Counted from the first letter of the stretch, positions 3,257 through 63,861 are shown. The stretch: 64,000 nucleotides of DNA from Candidatus Bathyarchaeia archaeon (GCA_050012255.1 JBEKHN010000001.1:328392-392391); one strand, 5' to 3'. Translations and numbers: made by a program. Notes: generated by a model from the letters alone, not told the origin.

Positions 3257-3326
3257 AGACAGCACATTTGAGCGCGTGCTATTCATTCGATACGCACACT
3301 AGCCTTATATTGCAGAACTAGGCAGG

Positions 3327-3581
3327 ATGTTCAGCATGAAAAAGGTTTTTGGCAAGAATATTCTAGTAGCAAAAGTTGTTGGCGAGGTGCTGTTCTTGTA
3401 TGGATTTCTTGGTTGGGGCTTCGGAGTGCTAGTGGCATTGGTTCGTCCGCAATGGTTGCAATGGAGTCTGTCTCATCTGACACCGTGGCTAAGGCTGGAC
3501 ACCTTCACGATTGTGTCTTTCATCGTTAGCGCCGTCGGATTTTTCATGTGGAGTTTTACCAAAGAATTAAGGTCGAGTTAG
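3327..3581 (+). CDS. Small two-TM membrane protein (paralog of 25223-25498)
   Basis: Near-identical paralog in window; CTTATATT TATA-like box at ~3305. Confidence 0.8.
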   Translation: MFSMKKVFGKNILVAKVVGEVLFLYGFLGWGFGVLVALVRPQWLQWSLSHLTPWLRLDTFTIVSFIVSAVGFFMWSFTKELRSS

Positions 3582-3783
3582 CGCGAGTTTTCACTTCAAT
3601 TGTCTCAAAATCGGTCTTAATCGAGGCTCAAAGCTTGAAACGCCTTGAGGCGTCTTGCCAAAGGGCTCACAAGTTAGTCTTGAGGTGTCTTGAAAGCATG
3701 TCCTTTTTGTGCTTCAAGGGGATCGATACTCGTCCAACGGTTTGTGTGGTGAATGTCCACTTAGGAAAGCAAACGGTGTTGAA

Positions 3784-4506
3784 ATGAAGGTCTATAGAAT
3801 TCCGACCTTAATTCACTTTTTCGGACCTGATGGTTCAGGCAAGTCTACTCACGTTGACATATTGCTGAATCTGCTGAAGGAGCAAGAACCGCGAGTTAAG
3901 AAAATCTGGCTTCGATCTCCTCACACAGTAGCTTTCTTGCTATGGCGTTTGTTTATCAAAGTGGGTTTTTACCGCGTTGTCTCAAACCCGTTTGGTGACC
4001 CTGTCAGACTCCCAGCGGTCAATCGAAAAGGATCGCTTCGAACTCTCTGGGCCTTAGTCGAATTCTTCAGCGTCTTGCCCTTGATCGCGCGCATTCGTTT
4101 TTTGATGTTGAGAGGCTATAAATGCATTGCCGAGAGATACGTTCTCGACACGATTGTAACGGTTGCGTACTTCATAGGAGACATGAACTTCTTGACTAGC
4201 AGAATTTCGAGCCTGCTCTTTCGTTTCATCCCCCCTGACACCTTGTTCATCTTTCTAGATTCGGATTATGGAACAGTGTTCAGAAGGCGCGCACACTTGC
4301 GTGGTAAGAAGAGGTTACGCCGGAACGATGGAAACTACGGTAGTCTTCCCAGAGCTGCTGTTGAACCACAAGAATTCATCAACTTCCAGAGAAACGCCTA
4401 CAAGATACTGTCAAAATCGTTCCATGCGACAGAGATCGATACGTCTTCACGTACAATAAAAGAAACATCCAACGAGATACAGAAACTACTGGAAAGTCAG
4501 GCATGA
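3784..4506 (+). CDS. P-loop nucleotide kinase, thymidylate-kinase-like
   Basis: GPDGSGKST Walker A, IAERYVLD, FIFLD; likely start ATG 3784. Confidence 0.8.
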   Translation: MKVYRIPTLIHFFGPDGSGKSTHVDILLNLLKEQEPRVKKIWLRSPHTVAFLLWRLFIKVGFYRVVSNPFGDPVRLPAVNRKGSLRTLWALVEFFSVLPLIARIRFLMLRGYKCIAERYVLDTIVTVAYFIGDMNFLTSRISSLLFRFIPPDTLFIFLDSDYGTVFRRRAHLRGKKRLRRNDGNYGSLPRAAVEPQEFINFQRNAYKILSKSFHATEIDTSSRTIKETSNEIQKLLESQA

Positions 4507-4597
4507 AGTCTCTGGTGAAATGAGTGGCGAGCGCAAAATCCACGTGATTTAGAGATCGCGCATGTAGTGCAATGTGAACCTTCCGCTCGCCTTGTTT

Positions 4598-5620
4598 CTA
4601 GTAGGTTTCCCGAAATGCGTGGTCCACAAGTTTTCTAAAAAAATCATTTGCAAATTTAGCATCAAACATGTTAGACAATTGTTTTGCCAAGCTCCTTCTT
4701 GTTTCGTTTTGTTTCATCATTTCTATTAGGGATTTGCCGATTGTGATGGGGTGGTACTTGTGTGGCGTCTCAAATTCCTCTCTCTGGAGTCTTGCAGCTT
4801 CAAAATCCTCTTCGCCAATTGTGTCAAGAATCTTCTTGAGAGTATCAGGGACAGTTGCATGCGCGGTACAGTGCAAAAAGGCGGTAATAGCCGCGTGCGT
4901 CTTGGTTGCATGTTTGATGTTGCATTTCTCCGCTGTTCGGACAAAATTTTCCACGTCGATCTGTTTCAGATAATAGATGAATGTGTAGTATTCTGCGAGC
5001 GTGTACATTTGTTCTTTTACTATTGAGTGAGCGATTATGCATATTAAGTCAGCTTCGGGTTTTAAGGTTTTTACAGGTCTGTTGTTCGTCAATTTTTTCT
5101 CTATAATGGAGTCTATGAGCTTACGTTTGTCTATGTAGGTTATTGAGCTTACAGCAATTTGATCATACAAGTCAATTCCTATGCCGTTGTCTCGATCCCA
5201 TATTGTTGTTGACATTGGTCCTTGCACCACTAAACTGTATCCTGCTTCTTGCATCGTCTCCACAGCCTTTGCGTATCCTGCGAAAACGATCACGTCTATG
5301 TCAACTGTTGTGGATCTGTAAGGTCTAATGGTCTTGAAGACCGCGTGCTCAATGTGCGTCTCCGATAAGATGCGTGAGACCCTGGAAATTGAGTTATCTA
5401 TTCTCAAGCGTTTGATGTTTTCGCTTTCATGGATGGAGGAAAAAGTGCTCACACGGTTTCGCGGGTTCATCGTTTGCAGCCTGTCCAGATAGTAAAAAAG
5501 CATCCTGTTTTTTTCCGAGAGCTGATAAAGTCTTATCAATTCCATCTTGGTAAATGTCCTGACCGTTGGCGACGCAAATGGAGACCCTAGTAGTTGCAGA
5601 AGCTCGACCGTTGAGTTCAT
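4598..5620 (-). CDS. Nucleotidyltransferase family protein (NTP_transf_5-like)
   Basis: VFKTIRPYRSTTVDIDV (DxD) and IDLY motifs. Confidence 0.75.
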   Translation of the reverse strand: MNSTVELLQLLGSPFASPTVRTFTKMELIRLYQLSEKNRMLFYYLDRLQTMNPRNRVSTFSSIHESENIKRLRIDNSISRVSRILSETHIEHAVFKTIRPYRSTTVDIDVIVFAGYAKAVETMQEAGYSLVVQGPMSTTIWDRDNGIGIDLYDQIAVSSITYIDKRKLIDSIIEKKLTNNRPVKTLKPEADLICIIAHSIVKEQMYTLAEYYTFIYYLKQIDVENFVRTAEKCNIKHATKTHAAITAFLHCTAHATVPDTLKKILDTIGEEDFEAARLQREEFETPHKYHPITIGKSLIEMMKQNETRRSLAKQLSNMFDAKFANDFFRKLVDHAFRETY

Positions 5621-5732
5621 TTATCTCATCTTTGATTATCCACCTGTTGGTACAATCAAGTATTAGTATTATGCTCTCGAGCGCGCCACTCGAAGAGCCA
5701 TAACCATATACTTTATACAAAACGTTTATGAA

Positions 5733-6873: not shown

Positions 6874-6894
6874 GCGAGGGGGTGTTATGGGAAG

Positions 6895-8625
6895 ATGGAC
6901 AAGTCAAATGACGATCGACGGTCACGAAAGGTACAGTTGTTAGTAGTTGCGTTTTTTGTGTTCTTGGTTCTCCTAGTTGTCCAGGTTTTTCTGAGCACGA
7001 AGGACAGTACTGACTCTTGGATCTTGGAGGGTCTTGTTCCGTACTTTATTCTGGTTACTCTAACCTATAGTGCAATTGTGTCCTATTCTTCAAACATGAA
7101 ACTAATAGCTTTGATTAGTGGTTTTTATCTTGTTGCATTGAACGTTATACCAACTCTAAAATACGTTTTTGTCTATGGTTATCATGATCCGTTGGATCAT
7201 TTTGGTTCTATCCAACAAACGATAGCAGCAGGGCATATGTCCGAGGTAGGTGTTTACAGTGAGCAATATGGAGCTGCGCCCGGGCTGCATCTCCTAGTAT
7301 CGGAATTGTCAATGGTGACTGGTTCGAATGCGCTTTTTGCCTTCAAATTATTCCTGGTGGTTTCTCCTTTCATTTTACCACTTGTCGTCTATCTTGTAAT
7401 GAAGAGGTTGGACGCGCCCAACGGGCTTGTAAAGGCGGCTCTGTTTGCTAGCGTGATAACCGCACCAGTAACGTACATTTATACAGGCACAACTTCCGTC
7501 TATCCTCTTTATGAGATGTTCATTTGCTTTTGCTTGCTCTTCTTCTCCTTCGGACCACGTTCGCGTTCAGAATTTGTTACTGCGTTTGTGATAGGGGTAG
7601 GAATAGTGGTGTCGCATGATTCAACTTCCTTCTTTTTGTTGGTGATCGTGTCCTCGACTATGTTATTTATCATATTGGCGAGAAGAATCGGGATTTTTAA
7701 GAGAATTCCAAATCTGTCGATTCTCTTTGCTATGAGCTTTGGGACTCTCGTACTTGCGCATTTCACTTTTACTTCCAGCACTGGTAATCTCACAAGACTT
7801 TTGTCTCTGATGGATCAGATGATTGTGAGGACACTGTTTGGGCACCAATTGGCGGCTGTCAGCTATTATCAAGGTTTTTTCAGTCTAGGTTTAATTGACA
7901 GGATAAAAATTTTCTTGATTACTTACGGAAATGTTGCTATCCTACTCTTACTTGTTGCTGCGGCTCCTTTTGCGTTGTACAAACTTCGTAGAGCGAATGT
8001 GAAACTGCGCGGATTCTACTATAACATGATCTTTCCAGCCTTGCTGGCTTTCTTGTCATTTGCTCTGTATCTTTTTGTTAGCGGCGCTCCAGATAGAGGA
8101 TTGATTTATTTTGCTGCCTTTGCACCATTCCTTGCTGGATTAACAATATACTACCTATTTTTCTCAAGGAGATATCGCTTCGATAATCTGGTCGTGACAA
8201 TCGTCGTTTTCTCTTTGATCTGCGCATGCGTTCTATCTACATTCCCTGTTCAGCCCTTGATGCCAACCGTTTCTACAACACAGGGGAGTTATTATGCTTA
8301 TGACTTGAGACAAGTCAACACCGTATATGATCGATCGCTAGTTCTGTTTGTGAGCGCACATAACTCAAGCCTAAGTATATGGACAGACGATATTCTGAGG
8401 GATCTAACACTCGCCTTAACGAACTCAGATTTTCAGTCTTTACTTACCTCGAACCCAGAGAAAGCTGCATTGTTGCTTCTTTCAGTATCCCATGCCATTC
8501 CATCAGGCAGAAATGCGTTTAGCAATGAGCAATACATCCAGAACGCCTCGCTACAGGATGATATCCTATATTCGAATGGTCTTTCATTTGCGATGTTGAA
8601 CACGAGCAACACTGCATTCCCATAG
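6895..8625 (+). CDS. Polytopic membrane protein, putative GT-C / glycan polymerase-like
   Basis: About 13 hydrophobic segments; GYHDPLDH acidic loop after TM; glycan-locus context. Confidence 0.65.
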   Translation: MDKSNDDRRSRKVQLLVVAFFVFLVLLVVQVFLSTKDSTDSWILEGLVPYFILVTLTYSAIVSYSSNMKLIALISGFYLVALNVIPTLKYVFVYGYHDPLDHFGSIQQTIAAGHMSEVGVYSEQYGAAPGLHLLVSELSMVTGSNALFAFKLFLVVSPFILPLVVYLVMKRLDAPNGLVKAALFASVITAPVTYIYTGTTSVYPLYEMFICFCLLFFSFGPRSRSEFVTAFVIGVGIVVSHDSTSFFLLVIVSSTMLFIILARRIGIFKRIPNLSILFAMSFGTLVLAHFTFTSSTGNLTRLLSLMDQMIVRTLFGHQLAAVSYYQGFFSLGLIDRIKIFLITYGNVAILLLLVAAAPFALYKLRRANVKLRGFYYNMIFPALLAFLSFALYLFVSGAPDRGLIYFAAFAPFLAGLTIYYLFFSRRYRFDNLVVTIVVFSLICACVLSTFPVQPLMPTVSTTQGSYYAYDLRQVNTVYDRSLVLFVSAHNSSLSIWTDDILRDLTLALTNSDFQSLLTSNPEKAALLLLSVSHAIPSGRNAFSNEQYIQNASLQDDILYSNGLSFAMLNTSNTAFP

Positions 8626-9048
8626 ATTTTGAGATGGTTAACTAGCGCGTTTGAATTCTAGTTCAGACATGGTATAACGCTTGCATGAAGAATTCAGAAA
8701 AAATAATAATGTTTCATTGGTGAACGCGTCGATCCGTTAAACGACGTCCTCAAAATGCTCGCCCGCTCAGCAGTAAAGGATTTGACAGAGGTGATACATT
8801 TCTGATATAACAAGAGGTTTTTGTGCTCATGCGCGCGGGCAGATTAAATAATTGTTTTTAATGGGAGAGCCCGGTCTCCTCTTATTGGTTAGAATGAAGC
8901 GCGCGCGACCGACATCCCGATGACGGAATTACTATTACTTAATTTCACCCCCTTTTAAAGAGCGCGATATCCATTCAGCGACCTTAGAACCCTTAGAAAC
9001 ACACCTTAAACAACATTTAGGGTCTCTAACGCGTTTAAGCGGGTTTTT

Positions 9049-9115: not shown

Positions 9116-9421
9116 CACCGAACTCAAGGACCTTAAAAACCTTAAATCCAGGCCCTAATCATGCCGTAACAGAAAAAGGCTTGCACACCCGATAGCAGCT
9201 ATCGGATGAGCATGGTTCAAAGTCTAGCGGTCGGGCATGGGCCGCACGGCTTAACCAATCCTGGTAGTTTTGTGTAGCCTCTGATCTAATCCTGTCAAAC
9301 CGCTCTTTTGTGGTCCACGTCATGCGTGTCGGAAAGCGCGCGCGCTAAAATGTGCGTGGGGTTATCCAAATAGCTTTTATTATAGTCTCTGCGTTGTACC
9401 CTAGTGTTACGCATACAAAGA

Positions 9422-9620
9422 ATGATTGTTTCGGTGATAATACCCACGTACAAGAGAGTTACTGAAACGAAAAATCTTTTAGACATGATACAACGGCAAG
9501 ACATGGCACCCTATGAGATCCTCGTAGTTGATGACACGCCGTCCAGACAAATTGAAACCTTGTGCCATGACTGTAAAGAAGGACTAGCAAACAAAGGTTG
9601 CGAACTGGTAGCGCGCGCTA
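9422..9620 (+). pseudogene. Truncated GT2 glycosyltransferase (N-terminal ~63 aa)
   Basis: MIVSVIIPTYKR..YEILVVDD, then TAGCGCGCGCTA at 9609-9620; no DxD half follows. Confidence 0.85.
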
Positions 9621-9735
9621 AACCTCAAATTCTCGTAACGCGCAGACAAGTTTTTCTTGAAGAAGCTTACAATCTAATCCAAGGTGCTTGCAGGTCCGTC
9701 TTGGAAACATTCACGATATACCGACAGAGGTTGTT

Positions 9736-10926
9736 ATGCTTATGCGCATCTTCTTTCTAGGTGATGCAGAACCTAGACTCGTGCTCGGAAGCGCGGCTGC
9801 GCTTGCGATGAAGGGCCATGATGTCTTCCATGTAAGCCCATCAAAGAATCTGTTTCCAAGTTTCGCTGAGAAAATCCAAGTTGAAGTTTATGAAGGATTG
9901 CGCGTTCCAATAAACCGGATAGATATACCTGTTATCGGAGAGAAGAATCTTGCTGGTAGAGAAATCAGTCCGCAAGGCGTTTCTGCCTCTGTATTAACGT
10001 TGTTGAAAGAGGTTTCTCCAGATGTGATTGTATCGTATCCAGAAAGCTGGATGCTGGCTCGTTCGCTGAGCAAGAAGCTGTATATTCCGTTGGTTCTCTA
10101 CTTAGTCGGCATCAGAGCACTATATCTATTTACCTACCTGCAGTTTTTTCACAAGTATTCCGACATATTGCGTGCCCCATTTTCTTGCACTTATAATGTG
10201 GCTCTCTCTGAACTATCAGATTTCACGATTGCACCAAAAAAAACCGTAAAGTTCCTCAGATATTTTGGGATTCGAAGAGTTGCTGCGCTTCGCCCTCTTT
10301 TTGCGCGCGTCAATTTCTCGTCAGAACGCGTACGCAGAGGGACTAACATCGAGCTGCCTGAGTCTTATGTACTAAGCATTGCCACAGTCAGTAGAGACAG
10401 GAACCCTGAGATAGACCTAGGCGTTTTTCGGATTGTTATGGCTATTGCACGCAAAACACCAGATGTTTTCTTCGTGGTTGTTGGCACATCGATTAGCGAT
10501 TTAACGAATCTGGGCAAAGCTTCTGCCCTGCCAGGTAATGTGCGGCTTGTGGGAAAGATATTCGACGATGATTTGCTTGCTGTTATGTACAGGAAAGCCA
10601 AGTGTGTTCTGTGTCCGATAGTGTACCCAGGGCTGTCCACTAGAGTTGATGAAGCTCTTTTCTACAAAAGACCCATTGTAATGACCAAGACGACTGCTGA
10701 CTCATATGGTGCGCTTGTGGATCACGAAAATTGCATTGTCGAGCAGGATTTTGGCAAGTGGCCTGCAAAGGTGCTCCAAGTAATGGACGATAGTGAATTG
10801 AGAAAAAAACTCGAAGTGGGTGCGGAAAGATACTACGCCGAAGTATGTTCACCGAAACGGCACGCGCTGATATTGGAACAAATACTTAACTACGTGGTTG
10901 AGTACGCACAAGCACGAAAAAATTGA
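9736..10926 (+). CDS. Glycosyltransferase family 4 (divergent)
   Basis: MRIFFLG, MYRKAKCVLCP..STRVDEALFYKRPIV. Confidence 0.8.
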   Translation: MLMRIFFLGDAEPRLVLGSAAALAMKGHDVFHVSPSKNLFPSFAEKIQVEVYEGLRVPINRIDIPVIGEKNLAGREISPQGVSASVLTLLKEVSPDVIVSYPESWMLARSLSKKLYIPLVLYLVGIRALYLFTYLQFFHKYSDILRAPFSCTYNVALSELSDFTIAPKKTVKFLRYFGIRRVAALRPLFARVNFSSERVRRGTNIELPESYVLSIATVSRDRNPEIDLGVFRIVMAIARKTPDVFFVVVGTSISDLTNLGKASALPGNVRLVGKIFDDDLLAVMYRKAKCVLCPIVYPGLSTRVDEALFYKRPIVMTKTTADSYGALVDHENCIVEQDFGKWPAKVLQVMDDSELRKKLEVGAERYYAEVCSPKRHALILEQILNYVVEYAQARKN

Positions 10927-11222
10927 ACGGAAAATCAGAAAAAGGAAGAATCGGCACACCCCACGCTTCAGTAGTGATTGTGGAACACGCTAAGAAACTA
11001 CTTCAACTGTTCTGATTCTAGTGCAATATGGAGAAACCATAATCCTTAACTGTTTCTTCATGAGATTCAGGAAGGAAGGAATCTTAATTGAACCAGGAGG
11101 TCATTTACTGTTTATTGCTGAAGGTGATCGCGCGTGTCATTGCTGAATGACTGCGACATTGTTGCTCGGGCGCGCGCTCCGGGCTCGAAAAAAGAGCCTT
11201 CTTGGTTGCAGGAGAGATCTAC

Positions 11223-12206: not shown

Positions 12207-12321
12207 CTATTTCAGTGACTGAGACGCCCCGGTAGCGCGCGCTAAAAAGCGCTAGGCATATTAGTCCTCAAAACGAAACACAACTGTGCAGATCATGCTA
12301 CCTTCGGAGTTCTAGGAATCC

Positions 12322-14470: not shown

Positions 14471-14537
14471 AACTAGTCGAAGAGATTATTCCTTGAAAGA
14501 TCAATCTTGACTGCTTGGACGATGAGGAAGAAGAGAC

Positions 14538-14598
14538 TTGAAGCTTGAGCATGGCGGAGTCTTGGTAACGGGCGGCGCTGGCTTCCTAGCGCGCGCTA
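14538..14598 (+). pseudogene. N-terminal stub of a nucleotide-sugar epimerase
   Basis: LKLEHGGVLVTGGAGFL, cut at TAGCGCGCGCTA 14587-14598. Confidence 0.8.
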
Positions 14599-14874
14599 CG
14601 CTATCAACAACTCTGGCGTAGCCGTTACCAGAGGGGTGGGAGGGATCCAACGAATTGGTCTGCATACTATCTTCAAGCGCGAAGAGATGTCGAACAGCGT
14701 TGCCGTTCAATCAAGATAGTATATATACTATTTTGAGCGCGCGCGCTAAGTTTTTGCAGCTTGCCTTCCAATCCGAGTTCGCTTCTTCGTATAGAATCAG
14801 AGTAGAGAATTGGCGTTGCGCGTGGGAAAACTGGGACACAGATCTCTGGAAAACAAAGGAATTGGAGGGCACGA

Positions 14875-23726: not shown

Positions 23727-23978
23727 AGCTAGCATTGAAACAGCATTCGATAAGCCCACTTGACTCCGCCCGCGCGCGCTGCACAAAATAAGTCAGGCGA
23801 TTATATCAGTGTAAGTTGAATAAACTTCATAGCTTCTTTTTCTGCTTTTGAAACAAGTTTGTCCAAGCAGTCAGTTTAGCATTCAAAGATATAGAAAATG
23901 GTATTTCTTAGAAAGTTATTCTACAAAACAAAAAAGATGGACAACGTTTTGTTCCTTTTGGCGTTTCAGACATTTCAT

Positions 23979-24974: not shown

Positions 24975-25222
24975 GCGAAGTCACAAGCGTGTCATAACTA
25001 CTACGATGTCAGATATCGGTCATAATAAACGTTCTTGTCGACAAGTTCTACAAAAATACACAACAACAGATGTCGTTAGGTGAGAACGCAGGTGTCATTC
25101 CATTGCACGGATCAGCCATGCCCCAAAAGAGACAGATTCCCTTGAAAGGCGTGTTTTGAACTCGGAAATGATTGCAGCACGCATAGAAAAATGGCAGCCA
25201 CAATCGCGCGGGAACAAGTCAA

Positions 25223-29838: not shown

Positions 29839-30295
29839 CGCACTTTGCGCGTGAACAAGAATTGGAATCAACCCTCACGCTCGAATGCGCTACCAAAAAG
29901 CTGGGCTATAGCTCACAGAATGCTGTCAAGGCGGGTCTCAACTTCGTGAATCGTACAAGGGCACCGATTTTCGCGCGTGCTAGAAAGGAAAAAACGAATT
30001 CATCCTAACTTCAGCGCGCGTGCCAAACCAATACTCAGATTCCAAGAACGAATACTTCAAACCACGACTAAAGCCAAAGCAACGTGAAATGCTGCGCGCG
30101 CTCATGAGTCATGAAATGCGCAGAGCAATGGAATTAGCGCACGTTTATCTGCGGCAGGATAAATCTTAAGTTCTTGGTCTGCACCAACATCGTCGTGTGG
30201 TTATGGACGCACCCGCGACGCGGTTACGGGTGCGCGCGCTCATGATCAGCAGGGAAATCTATCTCCCACACAAGCAGAGCCGGATCTGATCCTAC

Positions 30296-30730: not shown

Positions 30731-30917
30731 GCACCCTTCAGATTACACGCGAAGACCAGAGAACAAAAGGTTTGGAGAAGGTTCTTGAGCTCTTACTACG
30801 ATTTCGCGCGCGCCAGAGAAAAAAAGAAATCCTCCTAACTTCAGAAACCAGTTGGGCCTCAACAGAAAAAGAAATATCCTGATCATAAGACTAACGTACA
30901 TAGAAGGCAAAGGGTTG

Positions 30918-32000: not shown

Positions 32001-32277
32001 CAAATGCGGCCGTGGCATTATCAAAGACTTTTCTCCAGTTGAACCAAAATGAACTGCAAACCAGCACGCGCTCTTAGTCACGCTGAAAGAAAAGACTATC
32101 AACTCAGCGAATAAAGGAAGGAACAGGAATATGGATCCATTAATAGAAAGAGTTCTCGACATTCTCAAGATGCTCCTGTCGGGCAGACTAATCAAGGAAA
32201 TACGCCAAGTCAAACTGAAAATCAAGAATTGCATGACGGCTGAGCAAGACCAGCTCTCGGATAGAACGGGCCAAGAA

Positions 32278-32937
32278 ATGAAAGTGAGTATTGTGATACC
32301 CACATTAAACGAATCCAAATTTATCTCTAATCCTCTCAAGTCGCTACAGGCAGGGCAATACTCTAACTACGAAGTCATAGTTGTGGACTGCATGAGTGAA
32401 GATGACACCGTAGAAAAAGCAAGAAGAGCTGGGGCACGAGTGCTGGTTTCCAGCAAGAAGAACGTTGGTTATCAGGTTCACCTGGGCTTTCTAGATGTCA
32501 AAGGCGACATAATAATCAAAACAGACGCAGACACCATCTTTCCAAGAGATTTCCTCACAAAAACAGTAAAGGCATTCAAAAACCAAAAAACAATGATATA
32601 CCACGCCGGCCACATCTACTACGACGGAAACATAATAATGAACTTGATGGCCCATCTCTACGACAAGTACTGGCGAAAGCCCTGGGCCACAACCGGACAT
32701 TTCATCGCAGTAAGACGAGAAGCTTACGAAAAAGTCACCTTCAACCCTCTGCCCAAGAGTCAAGATTATGACTTCGGCCAAAGAGCCTATGACACGTTAG
32801 GTCCAGAAGCCTTCGCCTACAATCCAAATTCAACGGTACTCATCTCATCCAGAACAATAAAGAAACTAGGCCTACTAAGGTACGTACTCTACGGCGGCTC
32901 CTTCAGGATAAGGGAGCGCGCGCATGCCTGTTCCTAA
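32278..32937 (+). CDS. GT2 glycosyltransferase
   Basis: MKVSIVIPTLNE, EVIVVD, TDAD; stop codon lies inside the MITE left TIR. Confidence 0.88.
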   Translation: MKVSIVIPTLNESKFISNPLKSLQAGQYSNYEVIVVDCMSEDDTVEKARRAGARVLVSSKKNVGYQVHLGFLDVKGDIIIKTDADTIFPRDFLTKTVKAFKNQKTMIYHAGHIYYDGNIIMNLMAHLYDKYWRKPWATTGHFIAVRREAYEKVTFNPLPKSQDYDFGQRAYDTLGPEAFAYNPNSTVLISSRTIKKLGLLRYVLYGGSFRIRERAHACS

Positions 32938-33080
32938 ATTCCGTCAGCATGTTAGCTTCTGCCGTTGGCTGCTTCAATCTGTTGACAGCTATGTAACTTT
33001 CGATGTGTGAATTATCGTCTACATACATGAACCAATCAGGCAGCTTTTGAAGGAACGAATTTAGGAACAAGCATGCGCGC
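32918..33080. mobile_element. ~163-bp MITE-like element with ~24-bp terminal inverted repeats
   Basis: GCGCGCATGCCTGTTCCTAAATTC ... GAATTTAGGAACAAGCATGCGCGC; no ORF inside. Confidence 0.75.
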
Positions 33081-33209
33081 TACAACCTGAACTACAACGG
33101 TAATACTCTTTCAATCAGTTTGCAGGAGCTTCCGAATAGAAATCAGCGCGCGCTAGAGGTGCTAGGTGAGAAAAAGGAGGAGATTGGGGTAGTTTGTTTG
33201 GTTTTGCTG

Positions 33210-35330: not shown

Positions 35331-35864
35331 TATGATTCTTCCATTCGGCAGCTTCGGCAACGTATAAACAGCTGCAGGCGGATAGTTCCCGCCCAAAATT
35401 GTGATGCTAAATAGCGCGCGCGCAGCCTCAAAACTAACTTTTCCCATTCTCTTAGACTATTTTTAATTTCGCGTGCTATGCGCAATTTCACAATTGACTT
35501 CAATGTGTAAATCTGTGGCTTCTGCTGGATTGGCACGCACGTTCTTGTAAATCATGGAAGATACAAATTGGATGAAAGTGATGTATATGTGGAAGGATAG
35601 GGGCTCATATGCTCAACAGTAGTATAGAAACATACCACGAGCATAGAGAAGCATAAACTAGCACGCAACATCGTGCTACAATGGTCATACAATCTCGCCT
35701 TAGGTGTGGATTCCACAAGACACAATTTTGTCCATTGTGGAATACAAGATTTCAAGCGCGCGCGCAGCAAAAGAGCGCGTGCGAAGTTTTCTATAGAAGA
35801 CCTTTCTATAGAATTACTCCTCGTATGGATATTAGGAAGATTGAGTAATAAAGTCTGGGTTGAA

Positions 35865-39963: not shown

Positions 39964-41067
39964 ATGACAAACAAACCCGCACGAATTGTCATTCTGTGGA
40001 ACGTCAAGAGAATTCTAGGCAAGATGAGGGAAATGCTGTTCTATAAGAAGCTTGACTGGAATTTCATAAGCAAACCCCTGAAAGAAGACCCCAGTGAACT
40101 CTTCAACATCCATCGCCCCACCATTGAAGATTATGGGTTGAGGTACCGTGTTGATGGAAAGGCTAAGACCTGCTATGACTGGTGGTACTCCGCCATTCTC
40201 AAAGACACAGAAGAAAAACTCTATTTCTTCATTCTTGCCTTTCATCCAAAATGGAGCTTCTTCAGAATCATCCGAACAAACATGCGCGCGCGCGCTAAGC
40301 AGAATTCTCTTCCCAAATTTCCTGGTCTTGGATGTGACTTCCATGAGAAAATTGGTTATTCTGAACACGACGAAGCGATTGACATATGGGTTTCGAAAAT
40401 CACAAAACCAGAATCTTCAAAGAGAACATTTGCGAGAGTTACTATCAAACCTTGCAAGAGCCACCTGATTTTGAAAACAGACGACATGACTCTGGATCTG
40501 AATTTTACCAGTCTAGGCATGCCTTTCTGGATAAACAGGGGACGCGAAGCGATATGCTCCCCCAAAGGTGATTCAATGAGTGGATTCTATGACGTTTCCC
40601 AAATTGAAGGTTCTCTCAAGCATCTAGCAGAGAAAACAGCAATCAGTGGTGTTGGCATTAACGAGCATCTGATGTCGTTCATCCCCCCTGAACGTTTCTG
40701 GAAAAGGATAGACGGTATTTTCTTCTGCACCGACCAGGTCTACTGTGCAATATGGTACCTAGAAAACCAAATCGAAGCAAGACGTTTCGAGTACAAAGAC
40801 GGTGCAGTTTTCATCCGAGCAACCCAAGAATACCTAATACCAATAGATCTGAATGTCGAATACCTAGAATTTGACAACCACAAACAGGTCCCTATAAAGA
40901 TTCGCATCCAAGTAGATACAACAAAGGGAAAGTTGAACGCAGTGGCAGAGGCTATAGCCGAGACAGAAAAGCAGTTAGCGCTTAAGATCACAGACGGCAA
41001 CTTCATTTTTGAAGATGGAAGAAGATTGAGGCTGACAAACGGTTACGGTCAGCACGCTTTACATTAG
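39964..41067 (+). CDS. Hypothetical protein, possible CrtC/tocopherol-cyclase-like barrel
   Basis: YDWWY motif, G.G..EH, beta-rich; fold call is inference. Confidence 0.65.
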   Translation: MTNKPARIVILWNVKRILGKMREMLFYKKLDWNFISKPLKEDPSELFNIHRPTIEDYGLRYRVDGKAKTCYDWWYSAILKDTEEKLYFFILAFHPKWSFFRIIRTNMRARAKQNSLPKFPGLGCDFHEKIGYSEHDEAIDIWVSKITKPESSKRTFARVTIKPCKSHLILKTDDMTLDLNFTSLGMPFWINRGREAICSPKGDSMSGFYDVSQIEGSLKHLAEKTAISGVGINEHLMSFIPPERFWKRIDGIFFCTDQVYCAIWYLENQIEARRFEYKDGAVFIRATQEYLIPIDLNVEYLEFDNHKQVPIKIRIQVDTTKGKLNAVAEAIAETEKQLALKITDGNFIFEDGRRLRLTNGYGQHALH

Positions 41068-42255: not shown

Positions 42256-42453
42256 AAGCTGTGCCATTAAGTGAATAAAGATTGGTGTTTAGTCTTCATG
42301 ATTTTCTTTATGTTTTTTCACTTCCTATTTCATCAATTCAAAGAAAAGGTTGATGCCAATCGCGCGCGCTCGACGCCTTTTACACAAGCTGGAACTAATG
42401 AATCCTTATAAAGAACGTTGATCTTCAGTGAAAATAATGTTCGCGTGAAAGAA

Positions 42454-43941: not shown

Positions 43942-44319
43942 GCGCGAGCTGCGCTAAGCTTTCATACTTTCCGGCGCTCAAAAAGCAAATACCTTGCGCA
44001 CACCCCTTTTTATGTTTTGCATGAAACTGTCTTCGGAACCACGGGTTACTCAATCGACAATGATCTTCAGTTCGGGAATCTCCCTTTTTATTGAAGCCCC
44101 TGTCGCGCTTAGGACTGGACGAAGAACTTTCAACTGATACGTCTTTCAGACCGACGATGACTTCAGCAGGAACACATCTTGTTGACTGTGGTGCAGCTTC
44201 GACATTTATTGGCAACGTTGAGCGACTTCCATTAACCACAGCATTCACCTGTCAAATGAAGTTGAAGAAAGGGCACGGGGAGCGTATTGAAAGGCTCAAG
44301 GAATTGGTAGCGCGCGCTA

Positions 44320-48695: not shown

Positions 48696-49513
48696 TCGAA
48701 TCTCTTTTCCCAACATCCAACACGGCTAGGCGTGCCGAAACTAATAGTACAGCGGCGGGTATGAAAGCAATGTGCACGGTGGTATATCATTTCGGTAATG
48801 GAATCGTTGCCTGCGGTTCTCCGTGCAAGATTCTTTCCACGACTTCAAGAAAGATTTCCAAGTCCATTTTGATCCTGGCTCTTTTTTCGCCTCTGATTCC
48901 ATACTCGTATCTATCCTTGGAAGTGCAGACGTTTCCTTTGAGTGGAATGACAAGGCCCCTAATATTGAATCTCCAGTGAACTGTTAAAGTGATCTTGGCC
49001 ACCGTGTATGGGCCATGCTATGGCAATTAGTCTCTTGTACTTGGCTTGCTGTTTTCAAGCAGTCTGAGTACACTGGCGTGGTCGGTCGCTATTCTGAAGT
49101 CGAAGTTGATTCTCTTTGATTCTTTCTGCGCGCGCTTCTTTGACACAAAGATCACCCTACTGTTGATGTCGCGTGCGCCCACAGTTCTATCAACACGTGT
49201 TCTGAAACGAGCCAAGCTAGACTTGGTGGAAATGCGCGTTCCTTCCTTCGGATTTGATTATCTTCATTGATTTAACCATAATCCACTGTCCCTGAGCAAA
49301 CATATCAATGATATTTCTATGGAGGACACAATACTCACAGGGTCATAATACACTTCGCCCCATTGACGTTTTGTTCTTCTTCTCACGTGGGCAACTAATT
49401 CGGGTGGCTGGCTCTTCCTGACTCGAGAATAACTCTTAAGAGAGCCTTTCTCTTTCAAAACTCCAAGAACAAGAACACCACGTATTCTTGACAGTTCGAG
49501 GAAGAATCATAAA

Positions 49514-57579: not shown

Positions 57580-57660
57580 CTCCTTTCTCTTTTATTATCG
57601 AACTCGCCACAAGGACGGGCTGCACAACAAATTATATGCTTCAAACGCTTCGCGCGCGCT

Positions 57661-57915
57661 GACGTGGCTGTCACCGACTTTACCCCGGATTCTGACCGGG
57701 TCTACTAGGGCAAGCTCTGTAATCCTGGCGTGAACGTCCTAGGAGAAACGCCCGAGAATTTCACCGTCACCCCCCCTACACGCTTTCAACGACACTGCAA
57801 TCCCTTCTAACAGTACGATTGGAACTCAGTCAGTAACGGACCTGTCTCTGAACGAGATCCTTGTCCTCAGGTTTGTTTGGAACACTCTGGGAGTGATGCC
57901 ATGCCACTGGTACAA
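57661..57915 (+). pseudogene. Isolated, degraded CARDB/Ig-like domain
   Basis: DVAVTD..VY*G..ENFTVT/..IGTQSVTDL..LRFVWNT.GV.PC; flanked by CGCGCGCGC at 57651 and 57916. Confidence 0.7.
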
Positions 57916-58181
57916 CGCGCGCGCAAGGTTTCGCCCAAAAGCCTTGAGTTGTCCGACAGGCTATACAATTGACGTTTTCCTTTGTCTGTTTGCTCAGCTT
58001 AGAGACAAGTGCTTGGGTGAGCTGTGTCATTTTGACGTGGTGCATTTTTGCGAAGGGCCTCTTAGCTTCTGGATTATGTCGGCAATCACTACAAACATTT
58101 TCCATGTTCTTCTTTCTCCTTTCGATTACAAATACGGTATTGTAAGCTAAAGGCGCGCGCTAGACCAAAAAAAGAGGGATG

Positions 58182-60470
58182 TCAGCGTACGACTAGCGTG
58201 ATGTCAGTGGTGCATGGCATATTGCTTGATGAGCCAGCGTAGCTCATTCTGTACACGTACGTGCCAATTGATAGAGCTGTGAAACTCTTTGAGAATATTC
58301 CGTACGTGTTTGTAGATACCGTTCCGAGTTGGGTCCAGTTGAGCCCGTAGTCGCTGCTGTATTGGAGACTTATCGTCGCAGATCCTATTCGATTGCTGAA
58401 CTGGTCAACCAAAATGCCTTTGAGCGTAACAGTGGCTCCCGGAGGTGCGAGGTTCGGAAAGAATCTAGCGTATATCTCTGTTGGAGTTTTGACCATTAGT
58501 ATCTTCCAAGAGGAGCATGGCAAGTACTGGGGAGAGCCTGTATACTCAGCTGTAACGTTAAACTGGCCTCCAGATCCAACCTGGCCGGAAGCCTTGAACC
58601 AGCCCGTGGCATTTGTTGTAAGCGTTCCGACTGAGGCGCCGTTCAGTTTGAGTCTAATAGTTGCACCTCCAATGGGCAAATTCTCTATCGTCGACAGGTT
58701 TCCAATTAGAGTGACAGTTTGTCCGACTGAAGCAGGATTGGGGATAAGGTTGAAAGACATTTGTGTCTGGAAGTTTGCGCCCAGTACAGTGGCGCTGCCA
58801 TTGACAACGGTGATTGGCATTGAAATCGCATTCATATCACAGCAGACCACCTTTGTCAGGGTGAGCGCTGTCTGGCCCGCGGCGATGCTCGTGAAGTTGA
58901 TTGTCGCCCAAGTTCCATTGGCAGATATGAAGGCATAACCGCCTTGGATAGCTCTCTGGAGGTCCATCCAAGTAACTGCGTAGTCCGCATGACCTCCTGT
59001 ATTATTTTTACTAAGCTTTAAGGTCCAGATGTTGTCCCATTCTAACTCGGGTGCAGCCTTGTGAAACGCTACCTCTTGTATCCATGAACAATTCAGGATA
59101 GAAGAATTCCAATTCAGTGTGAATTGACAGCCAGCTGCTCCACTGGAGCCCTCAGGCAGGTTCTCAAACGTAACGTTCACGGAGAACGTCTGCCCAACCC
59201 CAACGATGGTGTTCTCAGGTTTCACACGCATGTATGATACTGGCGGAGTCGTGCCCGTGAGCGCTTTGTAAGCATTGATTCTGCCATAGCCATAGTAGAT
59301 GTCTTTGCCTAGTGTGCCGAGGTCGTCAACACCTGCATCCAGACAGGTTCTAAGCTGGCTGTTTGTTAAGGACGTGTTGTGACCCCAAACCAAGGCCGCT
59401 AGACCTGCCACATGTGGACAAGCCATAGAAGTGCCCGACATGTAGTCGTAATTCATGCTCTCGTAGTATGGTGGATCGTTCATAGTCACGTGGTAAGTCG
59501 GCATTGTTGAAAGGACACCGACTCCTGGCGCCGCAAGCTCTATCTTATTGCCATAGTTGCTGAAGGAAGCCTTCACGTCACTGCTGTCTGATGCCGATAC
59601 GGCTATTACCATGCTTAGACTTGCTGGGTAGAATGGTGTCGTGTCAATGCTCATATTGTTATTTCCCGCCGCTGCCACAAGCAAGTCGCCATTGTTCCAT
59701 GCATAAGTGCATGCGCTGTCTATCAAGCTTGAGTAATCGGTTCCGCCCAGACTCATGCTTATCACCTTGGCGCCGTTGTCAGTGGCATGCGTTATTCCAG
59801 ATGCGATGTTACTCCATGAACCATAACCAGTGTTATCCACCACTTTCTCTGCCAAGAAACTGCTCTGGCCTACCCCGGCTACACCGATGCCGTTGTTGAT
59901 CACGGCCGCGACGATACCTGCACAGTGGGTCCCATGGCCGAAGTCATCCCTAGGATCGGGGTCATTGTTAACCCAGTCATAACCACCAGCTTTGTAGTGA
60001 GCGGCTAGGTCTGGGTGATTGTAGTCAATCCCCGTGTCTACGATTGCGACCACAACGCTAGTTGAACCCTTATAGGTGTCCCAAGCTTGATCAGCCTTGA
60101 TTCTAGGCATGTTCCACTGGTAACTCCAATATGGGTCGTTGGGCGTATAGACTGCTTTATACATCCCGTTTCGCTCAGCATACCTGAAACCTGAAATGCT
60201 CTTTGCATTTTGGATGAACTCCTCCTCTTTGCCAACTGCCACTTGAACAACCATCGCATTCAAATCGGCAATCTGTTTCACAACGGTACCGCCCATACTC
60301 TCAACAGCTTGAATGCTGCTGACTGAAACGGCTTGAAGACCCACAATCACTTCGCCCGGAACGAAAGTCTGTAGCTCCGCGCCTTTGGCAATTCTAAGAT
60401 TTTGAGGCAACGCTGCGAATAGCATCGCAATAATTGTGAATACGCATAGCACAATTCTTTGCTTTTTCAT
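58182..60470 (-). CDS. S8 subtilisin-like protease with cohesin-like and Ig-like domains
   Basis: VDTG, HGTHCAG, GTSMACPHV; VGQTFSVNV..QFTLNWN..L cohesin-like. Confidence 0.93.
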   Translation of the reverse strand: MKKQRIVLCVFTIIAMLFAALPQNLRIAKGAELQTFVPGEVIVGLQAVSVSSIQAVESMGGTVVKQIADLNAMVVQVAVGKEEEFIQNAKSISGFRYAERNGMYKAVYTPNDPYWSYQWNMPRIKADQAWDTYKGSTSVVVAIVDTGIDYNHPDLAAHYKAGGYDWVNNDPDPRDDFGHGTHCAGIVAAVINNGIGVAGVGQSSFLAEKVVDNTGYGSWSNIASGITHATDNGAKVISMSLGGTDYSSLIDSACTYAWNNGDLLVAAAGNNNMSIDTTPFYPASLSMVIAVSASDSSDVKASFSNYGNKIELAAPGVGVLSTMPTYHVTMNDPPYYESMNYDYMSGTSMACPHVAGLAALVWGHNTSLTNSQLRTCLDAGVDDLGTLGKDIYYGYGRINAYKALTGTTPPVSYMRVKPENTIVGVGQTFSVNVTFENLPEGSSGAAGCQFTLNWNSSILNCSWIQEVAFHKAAPELEWDNIWTLKLSKNNTGGHADYAVTWMDLQRAIQGGYAFISANGTWATINFTSIAAGQTALTLTKVVCCDMNAISMPITVVNGSATVLGANFQTQMSFNLIPNPASVGQTVTLIGNLSTIENLPIGGATIRLKLNGASVGTLTTNATGWFKASGQVGSGGQFNVTAEYTGSPQYLPCSSWKILMVKTPTEIYARFFPNLAPPGATVTLKGILVDQFSNRIGSATISLQYSSDYGLNWTQLGTVSTNTYGIFSKSFTALSIGTYVYRMSYAGSSSNMPCTTDITLVVR

Positions 60471-60559: not shown

Positions 60560-60729
60560 TATCTTTCATGATTGTGAGCAGAGTAATGCTAGATTAGTTT
60601 TTTAACAGAAGAGTCTTGTGTCATCAGTTGATCAAACTCTTATGAGCGCGCGCGCGACATCAATGCAGACTTCGCCCGCGCTTTGAGTAGTGGGGTCGCT
60701 TAGGTCAATGCCCACGTTTGAACCTCCAT

Positions 60730-61958: not shown

Positions 61959-62162
61959 AATCCGTCCAAAAAAATCCATGCACCATTAAACCTGGCGAAG
62001 CACAAGGACTCGATCGATCAGTTCGGTGGACTGGAACAAAGGCTGTGTGTCCGCCTGCTTCGTCTTCGAAAATTACTACGTCAAACTCGTACGTTGCATG
62101 ATCCTTAGCGTGGAAACTAGCGCGAGGGCATGGGAAAATTTAGAGGAACTTTTGGGGAGAGA

Positions 62163-62558
62163 TTAGGTTAAGCTGTGAAGTTTCAATGTTTTTATGTGCG
62201 GTTTTGCCTTTTCCGTTAATTCGTTGTCTTCGGTAATTAGGGGTGTTTTCTTGTTTTTGGCGTGGTATATGTATGATGCGTCATAGAAGGTTATTTTTAG
62301 ATTGTCTGCTATGCTTAATGTTTCTTCTTCGTGGCAGTTTATGGTTAGGGTTTCCATTAGGTTAAGCACGTTCTTTATGAGTTTGACAAGTTTTCCCGTT
62401 TCTTCGCGGTTTATCCGCTTGTGAAGCGTGTGTTCTTTCCATAGGATGTTTCCTAACTCGTATCTTGTTAGGTCTAGTGTTGAGTTACTAGCTAGGACTT
62501 CGACTGCGTTTTCTTTTATTGCCTTGAATATTGTTGAGGAATCAAAGATGTAGCTCAT
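62163..62558 (-). CDS. vapC: PIN-domain toxin
   Basis: IFDSS, YELGN, TFYDASY, LITED. Confidence 0.92.
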   Translation of the reverse strand: MSYIFDSSTIFKAIKENAVEVLASNSTLDLTRYELGNILWKEHTLHKRINREETGKLVKLIKNVLNLMETLTINCHEEETLSIADNLKITFYDASYIYHAKNKKTPLITEDNELTEKAKPHIKTLKLHSLT

Positions 62559-62797
62559 CTGTGTTCTCTGTCCTCTCTGATGCTTTGTATTATGGTTTCC
62601 ATGGGGATTTTGTCAAGGGTGGCTTTTATGCTTCGTATTTCCTCTTTGAGCTTTTGAACTTGTTTTCTTTTTATTTCTTCTTCTATGGCCCTCCGTAAAA
62701 GCTCAGAGGGTTTAATGCCCAGCTGCTTCATCTTCTCCTTCATTGTTTGGGGGACTTTTACTGAAACGGTTTCGTACTTACCCATTATTACTACCAC
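62555..62797 (-). CDS. vapB: RHH-type antitoxin
   Basis: TVSVKVP..KEKM..SELLRRAIEEE..IREDRE; ATGA overlap with vapC. Confidence 0.85.
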   Translation of the reverse strand: MVVIMGKYETVSVKVPQTMKEKMKQLGIKPSELLRRAIEEEIKRKQVQKLKEEIRSIKATLDKIPMETIIQSIREDREHR

Positions 62798-62924
62798 TCT
62801 GTACTACAAGTTGTAAGAATATAAGGTTTACCATTATCTCGAAGGCCAGCGCGCGCTTATTAATGCTTTTACGTGCAAGCTTTTATAGTAAGTAACTTGG
62901 TAGTGGCTTGCGAGGCTGAAACGT

Positions 62925-63299
62925 GTGAAGTTGAACTGGAAAAGCGGAAAGACTGTGGCATACGTTTTGTTGACCGTAGGCGTCGTTGTGATTTTCTTCG
63001 CAGTCTTTGAGATGATATTTGTTTTCACAGGCAGCAGCGCTCCTCCGAAACTGTTCAATTTCTCGGACATTTCCTCAAACGGTACGCTGGTGATTTCAGG
63101 CCAAGACATGAACAAGGCTGCCGGCATGGCTTTTTGGTTCGTACTAATGGCTTTCATCATGTGGGCGGGTGGAAAAATTGCATCCTTAGGCGTCAACCTG
63201 CTGAGGGAGATTAAAGTCGAAATAAAAGGGGCTTTAAAGACAGTCGAAGAAAAAGAACCAGCAAAGACCGAACCGGCAAAGACCGAACCGAAGAAATAG
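62925..63299 (+). CDS. Two-TM membrane protein
   Basis: Two hydrophobic helices; EPAKT repeat tail; flanked by motifs at 62848 and 63320. Confidence 0.7.
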   Translation: MKLNWKSGKTVAYVLLTVGVVVIFFAVFEMIFVFTGSSAPPKLFNFSDISSNGTLVISGQDMNKAAGMAFWFVLMAFIMWAGGKIASLGVNLLREIKVEIKGALKTVEEKEPAKTEPAKTEPKK

Positions 63300-63369
63300 T
63301 CATAAAGAGCAATTCTGGCAGCGCGCGTCTTTTGCCTCAGTTTCAACCTTCTAGCTATGTTTTTGTGTC

Positions 63370-63714
63370 TTGTTCTGCCGTGTTTGTTTGTCGGAGGAGT
63401 TTGCTTTGGTTTTCGGTCTAACTCGGAGGTCCAAATACGAAGAGGTGCAGAGGCAGAGAGACGAGTTACAGGCGTATATGAATGTCTTGTCGGGCGAGGT
63501 GGGGACTCTTCGAAAAGAGGTTGCAGAGTTAAGAAAGGAGACGAAGGCGTTTAAACAAAGAATCTGGCACCTTCAACGAGAGACGAACAGCCTGTGTGTT
63601 CAAAACGACGGACTCGCAGATCATGTTGAAATCCTTACTAAGGAAAGGGAGATCTTTCAAAAAACCATTGAAAGCCTTTGTCAAGCGACAAGGAAACAAA
63701 AGCACGCGCTTTGA
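63370..63714 (+). CDS. Coiled-coil hypothetical protein
   Basis: Heptad pattern; start uncertain; ends at decayed motif AGCACGCGCT. Confidence 0.55.
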   Translation: MFCRVCLSEEFALVFGLTRRSKYEEVQRQRDELQAYMNVLSGEVGTLRKEVAELRKETKAFKQRIWHLQRETNSLCVQNDGLADHVEILTKEREIFQKTIESLCQATRKQKHAL

Positions 63715-63770
63715 CTTCCAAGTAGCCTTTTATGGCTTCCTTAATGTTTTTTAAGGCTTCGTCTCTTGTT
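63711..63770 (-). pseudogene. HicB-family antitoxin fragment (~20 aa)
   Basis: TRDEALKNIKEAIKGYLEV between two motifs (63701 and 63771). Confidence 0.75.
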
Positions 63771-63861
63771 TAGCGCGCGCATGTGCTGGAATGATTATGA
63801 TGATTTGGCCAGAATCCCAGACTGTCTGTTAGCATTATGAGAGGGCTGTGGGTTTCTGGTC

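Follow-up and report, generated by a model that had tools for sequence, protein, structure and literature searches.

The cyanobacterial palindrome HIP1 is spread over coding and non-coding DNA, and Xu et al. (2018) reportedly treat HIP1 and the alternate highly iterated palindromes (HIPs) of cyanobacteria. Alternate HIPs are linked to cognate methyltransferases, as described in the part of Elhai 2015 (PMC4390886) cited here. Two further systems resemble the subject of this work in other respects. The part of Wu and Hao 2015 (PMC4478555) used here concerns palindromic GC clusters of 30-50 nt that form hairpins in yeast and other mitochondrial genomes, and the part used of a study of E. coli O157 (PMC9943667) concerns insertion sequence (IS) excision dependent on the excision enhancer IEE, with adjacent deletions of a few nucleotides to more than 40 kb. 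Here we describe the octamer GCGCGCGC in a 64,000-nt stretch of DNA from a Candidatus Bathyarchaeia archaeon (GCA_050012255.1, JBEKHN010000001.1:328392-392391), hereafter the window. An original prediction, made from this stretch, held that runs of alternating C and G mark gene and fragment junctions in an island of variable genes, as the crossover site or scar of a process that captures and joins DNA. We find that the word is a lineage-specific, insertion-born, unconstrained palindrome that marks deletion junctions and strain-specific DNA.

Abundance and distribution of the word

The window occupies C1:328392-392391 of genome G000, a 2.35-Mb assembly of 38 contigs with 48% G+C that is 98.5% complete with 5% contamination, and in which no 16S gene was found. 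Our own gene calls for it are crude (2236 genes, 81% coding), and all genomes compared but one are metagenome-assembled genomes (MAGs), from which repeats are often missing. GCGCGCGC has 32 matches in the window, compared with a mean of 0.51 (maximum 3) in 100 dinucleotide-preserving shuffles, and CGCGCGCG has 14, compared with 0.55 expected from such shuffles. These matches collapse into 25 distinct alternating CG runs of 8-12 nt, at the coordinates and in the number originally predicted. The form described as the best, TAGCGCGCGCTA, is likewise present at all four of its sites (9609, 12233, 14587 and 44308), three of which share GGTAGCGCGCGCTAAA. By the gene calls, 22 of the 25 runs are intergenic. 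Their density in the intergenic DNA of the window, 16.9 per 10 kb, exceeds by a modest margin the 11.5 per 10 kb found for strain-specific intergenic DNA as a whole.

Across G000 there are 393 alternating runs of 8 nt or more. GCGCGCGC is the most abundant 8-mer of this genome, with 868 occurrences on both strands, or 16 times the expectation of a first-order Markov model. Runs of 6, 7, 8, 9, 10, 11 and 12 nt number 517, 171, 201, 123, 63, 2 and 2, a distribution unlike that of other dinucleotide repeats in G000. The bump at 8 to 10 nt and the sharp stop beyond it indicate a defined word and not a product of slippage, and without a smooth decay in run length a dinucleotide microsatellite is ruled out.

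Most runs (316 of 393) are intergenic, 70 are in coding sequence and seven lie across a boundary, corresponding to 7.1 runs per 10 kb of intergenic and 0.37 per 10 kb of coding DNA, a 20-fold difference. Only the next base is biased: among 176 exact octamers, A is found at position -1 in 68% and T at position +1 in 60%. Because no flank is conserved past these positions, we rejected the idea that each copy is the core of an extended repeat, such as a MITE (miniature inverted-repeat transposable element) or a repetitive extragenic palindrome (REP). Half-sites (a hexamer or longer) abut any kind of repeated sequence in only 247 of 1838 cases, which counts against this idea as well. Per kb of spacer there are 0.73 copies between tandem genes, 0.60 between divergent and 0.88 between convergent ones, and given these similar densities a promoter or terminator role was rejected.

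The genome of a close relative, G001, is complete in one contig of 2,346,764 bp and aligns to 61% of G000 at 92.7% identity. Relative to this genome, spacers carry 11.5 copies per 10 kb where unaligned and 2.4 where aligned, and coding DNA carries 0.82 and 0.12, respectively; the density in strain-specific intergenic DNA is thus about 5 times that in conserved intergenic DNA. Of the 393 runs, no more than 46 fall within aligned blocks. The motif is kept in 19 of these, compared with a neutral expectation of 55% (0.927^8) at the mean identity of the blocks. Since retention does not exceed this expectation, and spacers evolve faster still, single copies are without constraint. One-mismatch variants number 25 to 78 each, against 434 perfect copies per strand, and copies look as if they are lost by point decay.

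These data bear on whether the word is a functional cis-element, for example a site for a regulator or nucleoid protein, a Z-DNA-forming buffer of supercoiling, or an uptake signal. Such a role would explain the strong intergenic bias, and a palindrome would suit a dimeric binding protein. However, positions are not conserved, promoter-type and terminator-type spacers have equal densities, and the word is enriched in strain-specific DNA and occurs at deletion junctions and inside truncated genes. We regard a cis-acting function as extremely improbable, and as the least probable of the explanations considered.

Related genomes differ sharply in their content of the word. AGCGCGCGCT occurs in 7-114 copies in each of 10 congeners, and in 0-1 copies in 20 genomes that belong to the same family or order but to other genera. 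The expansion is thus present throughout the 11 genomes of the genus, including G001 with 114 copies. In a 300-genome sample of the phylum, G157, from a sister genus, has 30 copies, and in genus g49, of another family, seven species have 16-118 copies and the other seven sampled species have 0-3. The motif coordinates in g49 are clustered as in the window, the context there being known from coordinates alone. The expansions in the sister genus and in g49 are further, separate ones. The motif is therefore not a feature of the island, as had been proposed, but is genome-wide (393 runs) and genus-wide, and recurs elsewhere in the phylum.

Some other repeats accompany these runs. GCATATAC is also among the most over-represented 8-mers of G000. 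Arrays of a 13-nt tandem repeat (GCATATACGTTTT) directly follow CGCGCGCGC-TAAGA and are found beside 9-nt alternating runs in 14 places of G000; such arrays sometimes follow a solo inverted repeat bracketed by the motif. Certain motif copies abut the 3' ends of tRNA genes, and at C6:56174 G001 carries a 2-kb segment instead of the motif.

Structure of the junctions

The island in the window is almost wholly missing from G001. Queries of 600 bp, each centred on an intergenic site of G000, lose their homology to G001 within 6 bp of the site in 84 of 307 cases for the motif (27%), compared with 68 of 1500 for random sites (4.5%), and an alignment spans 35 of the 307 motif sites but 751 of the 1500 random intergenic ones. 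Taken separately, the 250-bp flanks on the two sides keep a collinear order in G001 at 45 of the 310 motif sites, at 1401 of the 3000 random sites and at 358 of the 759 other all-G/C octamers. Within these three collinear sets, more than 50 bp take the place of the site itself in 18 of 45, 75 of 1401 and 32 of 358 cases, respectively. Clean exchanges of the octamer for a long segment number 10 among the 310 motif sites, 5 among the 3000 random sites and 0 among the 759 other all-G/C octamers. The pattern is symmetric, in that G001 has the longer segment at 21 of 61 mapped G000 sites, and the reverse holds at 38 of 75. This enrichment of breaks indicates that the intuition behind the original prediction, that the motif lies at junctions, was correct, and holds for the genome as a whole.

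The stretches 22000-33894 and 35044-40549 are bridged, with 0 differences, by Logan contigs of the probable source run, which cross nine motif junctions. These junctions are therefore not chimeras of binning or assembly, with the proviso that the contigs derive from the same reads. Peat metagenome runs contain DNA of this organism.

In 35 precisely mapped cases, one genome reads L-GCGCGCGC-R and the other L-X-R, where X is 61-3292 bp long. In 25 of these cases neither end of X has more than 3 nt of motif-like sequence, and in 4 of the 35 the motif flanks X on both sides. X is single-copy in 8 of 12 cases and sometimes comprises a whole small open reading frame (ORF). Because X has no motif at its ends in about 25 of 35 cases, crossover between two copies of the motif is excluded for those. 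Where such cases could be polarised with outgroups, X is ancestral in 5 of 5, with segments of 250-800 bp and base-precise junctions. X of C2:65894 is also in G007, and both ends of X at C1:21344 are common with G007. The right end of X is common with G007 at C8:16973 and C12:23341, and with G010 as well at C8:16973; X of C11:34962 is present in G003, G008 and G009. The presence of X in outgroups indicates that the octamer stands where a derived deletion took place. Gains of nothing but 8-10 bp were polarised at two sites, G001:1590958 and G000 C3:19943. One outgroup shows an event of its own: at G007:C7:3605-3616 (L312), a 517-bp deletion lies within a segment that G000 has wholly lost, and the junction there, CCGCGTGCAAAG, is possibly a decayed motif.

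The structure of the replaced segments also bears on whether the motif is the crossover core of an integron-like system that captures and joins DNA pieces in a surface-variation locus, as the original prediction supposed. The coincidence of breakpoints with the motif agrees with such a system, as do the four segments flanked by the motif on both sides, one of which is a composite of MITE, 1.4 kb and MITE in G001, and the runs that abut tRNA 3' ends. However, the motif is absent from both ends of most segments, and what could be polarised comprises deletions of ancestral DNA (5 of 5) and insertions of IS or MITEs (3 of 3). Also, the motif is genome-wide, and no integron-like recombinase common to the genus was found; the only multi-copy one is a tyrosine recombinase with six copies in G000 and none in G001. 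Capture and joining is thus very unlikely. What survives of the proposal is that the motif marks junctions, or is a scar of rearrangement, which agrees with the junctions genome-wide and, in the window, with the runs at 62849 and 35756.

The tyrosine recombinase is encoded at G000:C7:3-860 and in five other places, often at contig ends, and one copy is next to the restriction-modification (R-M)-like locus on C7 that is described below. It is probably an integrative element that breaks the assembly.

Insertion elements and candidate writers

Four MITE families of about 168, 186, 200 and 305 bp were traced from a dispersed repeat next to rpoB. All four have the form (T)A-GCGCGC-WWGC-GTGTTCCTAAAWT ... 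AWTTTAGGAACAnGCAT-GCGCGC-T(A), and such MITE or IS ends number 64 in G000 and 38 in G001. Matches to the rpoB-adjacent family number at least 24 in G000 and no fewer than 27 in G001; its 200-bp copy beside rpoB (L020:3621-3822, on G000:C12) occupies a site that is empty in G001, G007 and G010. A metagenome scan with the MITE terminus yielded a 1.07-kb element with the same ends and a 328-aa ORF, whose product has the transposase domains DDE_Tnp_1 (PF01609, E 2e-23) and, N-terminally, DUF772 (PF05598, E 7e-11). Judging from these domains, the element belongs to the IS5 family in a broad sense, with all NCBIfam IS models scoring below cut-off (best IS5_4, 94.9 against 140; IS1182, 147.8 against 270). 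Homologues of this IS are intact in G009 and G003 and degraded in G000, G001 and G007, and none was found in G002, G004, G005 or G008. A search of G000 and G001 returned no transposase ORF that is multi-copy at 50% identity or more. MITE or IS termini lie about 100 nt from many G000 contig ends (among them C15:107, C16:241, C20:108, C25:107, C8:94 and C9:89), which suggests that these repeats are a main cause of assembly breaks.

IS and MITE copies are always bracketed as GCGCGC, element, GCGCGC, and empty sites read GCGCGCGC. In 5 of 5 pairs of filled and empty sites, the empty site is the octamer or a version with one or two mismatches, and parsimony polarises 3 of 3 insertions as having entered a pre-existing motif. 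The composite insertion in G001 consists of a MITE, 1.4 kb of unique DNA and a second MITE, with GCGCGC at each boundary. Although the inverted repeats are clear, the palindromic site hides how long the target-site duplication is; a duplication of 0, 2 or 4 bp and hexamers borne by the element all fit the sequences. In intact copies, TA is found at one end only, the opposite end having GT or CA. An IS630/Tc1/mariner origin was rejected, since PF13358 (DDE_3) is found in 0 of 31 genomes and TA occurs at just 52% and 50% of MITE ends. The MITE in the window cuts off the 3' end of a GT2 glycosyltransferase gene. The original prediction listed a tail, RERAHACS*, on this ORF after the motif; the tail is real, and represents GT2 translation entering the inverted repeat of the MITE.

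A rival explanation is that the word is a transposon footprint. GCGCGC might be the true tip of the IS and MITEs, in which case excision would leave GCGC + GCGC with flanking A/T to be sealed by Ku and LigD, and an IS-mediated adjacent deletion followed by excision would replace a segment with the octamer. GCGCGC always brackets the IS and all four MITE families, including an IS copy in G104, and the tips are invariant outside the variable WW position. Filled sites have 6+6 letters and empty sites 8, flank preference is alike (A at -1 in 75% of MITE ends and 80% of solo half-sites), and truncated MITE copies are joined to GCGCGCGCGC. The genome also has a full operon for LigD_Prim-Pol, Ku and a ligase-phosphoesterase, and Ku is present in G000 and 7 of 10 congeners compared with 1 of 20 other genomes of the order. 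A precedent is the IEE-dependent IS excision with adjacent deletions, in the part of PMC9943667 noted above.

On the other hand, the components of such a footprint do not follow the word. In g49, Ku and the transposase are each found in 0 of 14 species and the terminus has no exact match, and PF01609 occurs in three of the seven species rich in the motif and in one of the seven poor in it. G104 has Ku and an IS copy of 82% identity but only 1 motif copy, and G004 (39 copies) and G008 (56 copies) have no match to the terminus, the homologue or PF01609. Just 4 of 393 runs abut a terminus. MITE ends also have T at -2 in 56-61% and TA in 50-52%, compared with TA in 29-36% of solo half-sites. Footprints are not known from IS5-family elements, and we consider this explanation unlikely, if still to be taken seriously.

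Neither C5 methyltransferases, nor Ku/LigD, nor this IS is necessary or sufficient for the word. The first of these candidates corresponds to an origin like that proposed for cyanobacterial HIP1, in which a methyltransferase and biased repair of T:G mismatches drive point mutations toward GCGCGCGC. G000 encodes two C5 methyltransferases, one of them nearest to M.HhaI (GCGC; E 1.5e-57), and each is near a glycosylase whose best solved relative is 1KEA, a 'possible G-T mismatches repair enzyme' (E 1.3e-43). The patchy phylogenetic distribution of the word resembles that of mobile R-M genes, one site looks like a birth by stepwise substitution, and alternate HIPs provide the parallel cited at the outset. 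However, a C5 methyltransferase with a Mig-like glycosylase was rejected as the writer, because C5 homologues are found in just 2 of 11 genomes of the genus and in none for G001, with its 114 copies. Co-distribution with a GCGC or CGCG methyltransferase, which the original prediction suggested looking for, is thus contradicted for the C5 class, the N4/N6 classes lying outside the survey. A search for Vsr found none, births are mostly 8-bp insertions or fillers, and the motif is almost excluded from coding DNA. A mutational drive of this kind therefore appears highly improbable. The methyltransferases and glycosylases (HhH-GPD/Fe-S) form two strain-specific R-M-like loci, G000:C6:37262-39021 (L003) and G000:C7:1772-5887 (L002), and the ORFs beside them (239-357 aa), for which Pfam gave no match, may encode the endonucleases.

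The operon for non-homologous end joining, at G000:C10:11503-14554, comprises genes for a LigD primase-polymerase, for Ku, and for an ATP-dependent ligase that is fused to the 3'-phosphoesterase of LigD. The three congeners in which Ku is missing are the least complete genomes. Ku/LigD was nonetheless rejected as a required partner, since Ku is in none of the 14 g49 species, seven of which are motif-rich, and not in G157, and was found in G104 (1 copy of the motif) and G209 (0 copies). The IS5-type element was rejected as a general generator of the word on the evidence from g49, G004 and G008 already given.

The reading that we tentatively prefer, as a possibility that falls just short of probable, is that GCGCGCGC, often as (T)A-GCGCGCGC-T(A), is a junction word written at rearrangements and reused by IS and MITEs as an insertion site. 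The word would be written into the DNA of the genus upon rearrangement, and copies would accumulate where selection tolerates them, in non-coding and strain-specific DNA, and then decay by point mutation. Because the perfect palindrome often includes the flanking A...T, both ends of a DNA break seem to acquire the same short G/C-alternating end before joining. Two such self-complementary ends might then be joined, leaving the octamer as filler, and the IS/MITE family would later use the word as a preferred insertion site. We would infer an end-tagging step and not integron-like site-specific recombination. There is a substantial chance that the writer is something new.

Several observations weigh against this preference. 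One site, G001:1628176, looks like the stepwise birth by substitution mentioned above. Polarity comes from 5 deletions, 2 gains and 3 insertions out of about 60 motif-versus-segment polymorphisms, with outgroup G007 covered over 400 kb, and parsimony could mislead if excision is frequent. GCGCGC is invariant outside the variable WW dinucleotide at IS tips, and the IS copy in G104, a genome with 1 AGCGCGCGCT, is still GCGCGC-bracketed. Both facts fit GCGCGC as part of the element better than as a borrowed target, and so favour the excision footprint. Finally, no enzyme able to write the word was found among the candidates, so the end-tagging step is conjectural.

A broader version of the junction-word reading is that several archaeal lineages carry a horizontally patchy activity that writes (A)GCGCGCGC(T) into break-repair junctions and so makes landing pads for IS5-family elements. 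An enzyme that tags or joins ends might be responsible, or else a mobile unit of very small size, and all deletions and insertions would then be left on record. We consider this version rather unlikely.

The window and comparison with known systems

Within the window (Table 1), the proposal that the motif lies at the ends of broken genes stands for the GT2 fragment. For the O-methyltransferase, the evidence is a weak match below cut-off, and the epimerase, CARDB and HicB cases were not confirmed: frames 14504-14710 (minus), 57743-58147, 57471-57701 (minus) and 63533-63751 gave no Pfam matches, these being some of the frames relevant to those claims. An ORF of 1741 aa in the island occupies 18501-23726, with a motif run shortly after its stop. 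Island ORFs 3709-4506, 4598-5620 and 6895-8625 have no Pfam match. A search of genome contigs for related loci returned solely an unrelated Serratia locus. Elsewhere in the genomes, G000 (C1:287137-287700 and others) and G001 each encode four TATA-binding-protein paralogues, and HdrA is also present, which identifies the organism as an archaeon.

Table 1. Alternating CG runs and associated features, in window coordinates
Feature	Position	Strand	Remarks
Alternating CG run, 9 nt	8899..8907		Intergenic
Alternating CG run, 10 nt	9336..9345		Intergenic
ORF with truncated GT2 domain	9386..9757	+	Pfam positions 1-63 of 168, residues 16-80; ends at motif
GCGCGCGC as GGTAGCGCGCGCTAAA	9611..9618		At truncation point of GT2 fragment
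GCGCGCGC	11170..11177		25 nt upstream of epimerase ORF start (11202)
GCGCGCGC (GGTAGCGCGCGCTAAA)	12235..12242		29 nt past epimerase stop
GCGCGCGC (TAGCGCGCGCTA)	14589..14596		Within 800-bp non-coding gap
Alternating run, 10 nt	14737..14746		In the 800-bp non-coding gap shared with the 14589 copy
Alternating run, 9 nt	23771..23779		45 nt past stop of 1741-aa ORF; site bridged by source-run contig
GCGCGCGC	30094..30101		Intergenic
GCGCGCGC	30232..30239		Intergenic
Alternating run, 9 nt	30805..30813		Intergenic
GT2 glycosyltransferase ORF	32131..32937	+	3' end enters MITE ('RERAHACS*' tail)
GCGCGCGC	32916..32923		Abuts left inverted repeat of MITE
MITE, ~160 bp	32918..33081		GCGCGC-ATGCCTGTTCCTAAATTCC ... 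GAATTTAGGAACAAGCAT-GCGCGC; equal boundaries in other contexts in two other metagenomes
GCGCGCGC (AGCGCGCGCT)	33146..33153		Intergenic
Alternating run, 10 nt	35414..35423		
Alternating run, 10 nt	35756..35765		Homology with contigs of two other peat metagenomes starts at 35782, 17 nt off
Alternating run, 12 nt	40284..40295		Inside ORF 39964-41067; interrupted by three extra letters in X2-run contig
Alternating run, 9 nt	42361..42369		
GCGCGCGC (GGTAGCGCGCGCTAAA)	44310..44317		At first base of O-methyltransferase-like ORF
O-methyltransferase-like ORF	44311-44916		Without N-terminal part; model positions 56-106 of 210, weak, E 0.0025, below cut-off
GCGCGCGC	49128..49135		Intergenic
Alternating run, 9 nt	57651..57659		
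Alternating run, 9 nt	57916..57924		
GCGCGCGC	58153..58160		~20 nt beyond 3' end (minus strand) of 762-aa ORF 58182-60470
Alternating run, 11 nt	60646..60656		
GCGCGCGC	62849..62856		Exactly between blocks 62133-62844 and 62849-63290, which are 7.4 kb apart in G001; G001 has the motif at the right-hand junction only
GCGCGCGC	63773..63780		Intergenic

If the junction-word reading is correct, the octamer is a natural tag of a deletion, an insertion or the visit of an element, and the history of gene loss could be read from a single genome. It would also be, within the literature searched, the first hyper-abundant short palindrome found to be born by insertion at rearrangement junctions and not by mutation bias, which bears on the long-open question of how HIP-like words originate. 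In that literature we found no prokaryote rich in GCGCGCGC and no octamer filler at deletion junctions, although supplementary tables of over-represented words in HIP papers may hold cases. Annotation of such genomes also gains, in that the word accounts for many gene truncations and unusual ORF tails. A further outcome is an insertion sequence that occupies a single palindromic word in all its copies, and a full Ku/LigD operon comes to light in an archaeal genus.

Several described systems share some of these properties. Like integron attC and attI sites, the copies in the window are short sites at gene boundaries in a variable locus, but there is no integrase and there are no attC hairpins, replaced segments are mostly without flanking sites, and polarised events are deletions. 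REP elements and their associated transposases (RAYT) involve a hairpin of 20-40 nt and a Y1 transposase, compared with a unit of 8-12 nt and an unconserved flank here. The 1.07-kb element has the DDE_Tnp_1 and DUF772 domains, length and inverted terminal repeats of the IS5 family, and non-autonomous derivatives of 165-305 bp with the same tips. It differs in that every copy lies within one palindromic hexamer pair, empty sites carry the octamer, and NCBIfam scores are below cut-off. IEE-dependent excision likewise combines end joining of the primase-polymerase type with a transposase, causing IS loss and variable adjacent deletions (PMC9943667, in the part cited). However, a constant filler is not mentioned in that part of the paper, and Ku/LigD is not co-distributed with the motif outside the genus.

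There are also parallels with other short palindromes. Like the mitochondrial GC clusters, the word is a short G+C-rich palindrome with sporadic non-coding spread, fast turnover, no known enzyme of its own and a link to rearrangement, as far as the clusters are described in the cited part of PMC4478555. Unlike them, it is 8-12 nt long, too short to fold, and resides in an archaeal chromosome. With HIP1 and the alternate HIPs, in the cited part of PMC4390886, it has in common that an 8-nt G+C-rich palindrome outranks all other words of the genome in over-representation, is lineage-specific, and is replaceable or lost among relatives; GCGCGCGC does not appear in Elhai's text. The word described here differs from HIP1 in being 20 times depleted in coding DNA, in having copies that are not conserved but are born by insertion or as deletion filler, and in lacking co-distribution with a cognate C5 methyltransferase.

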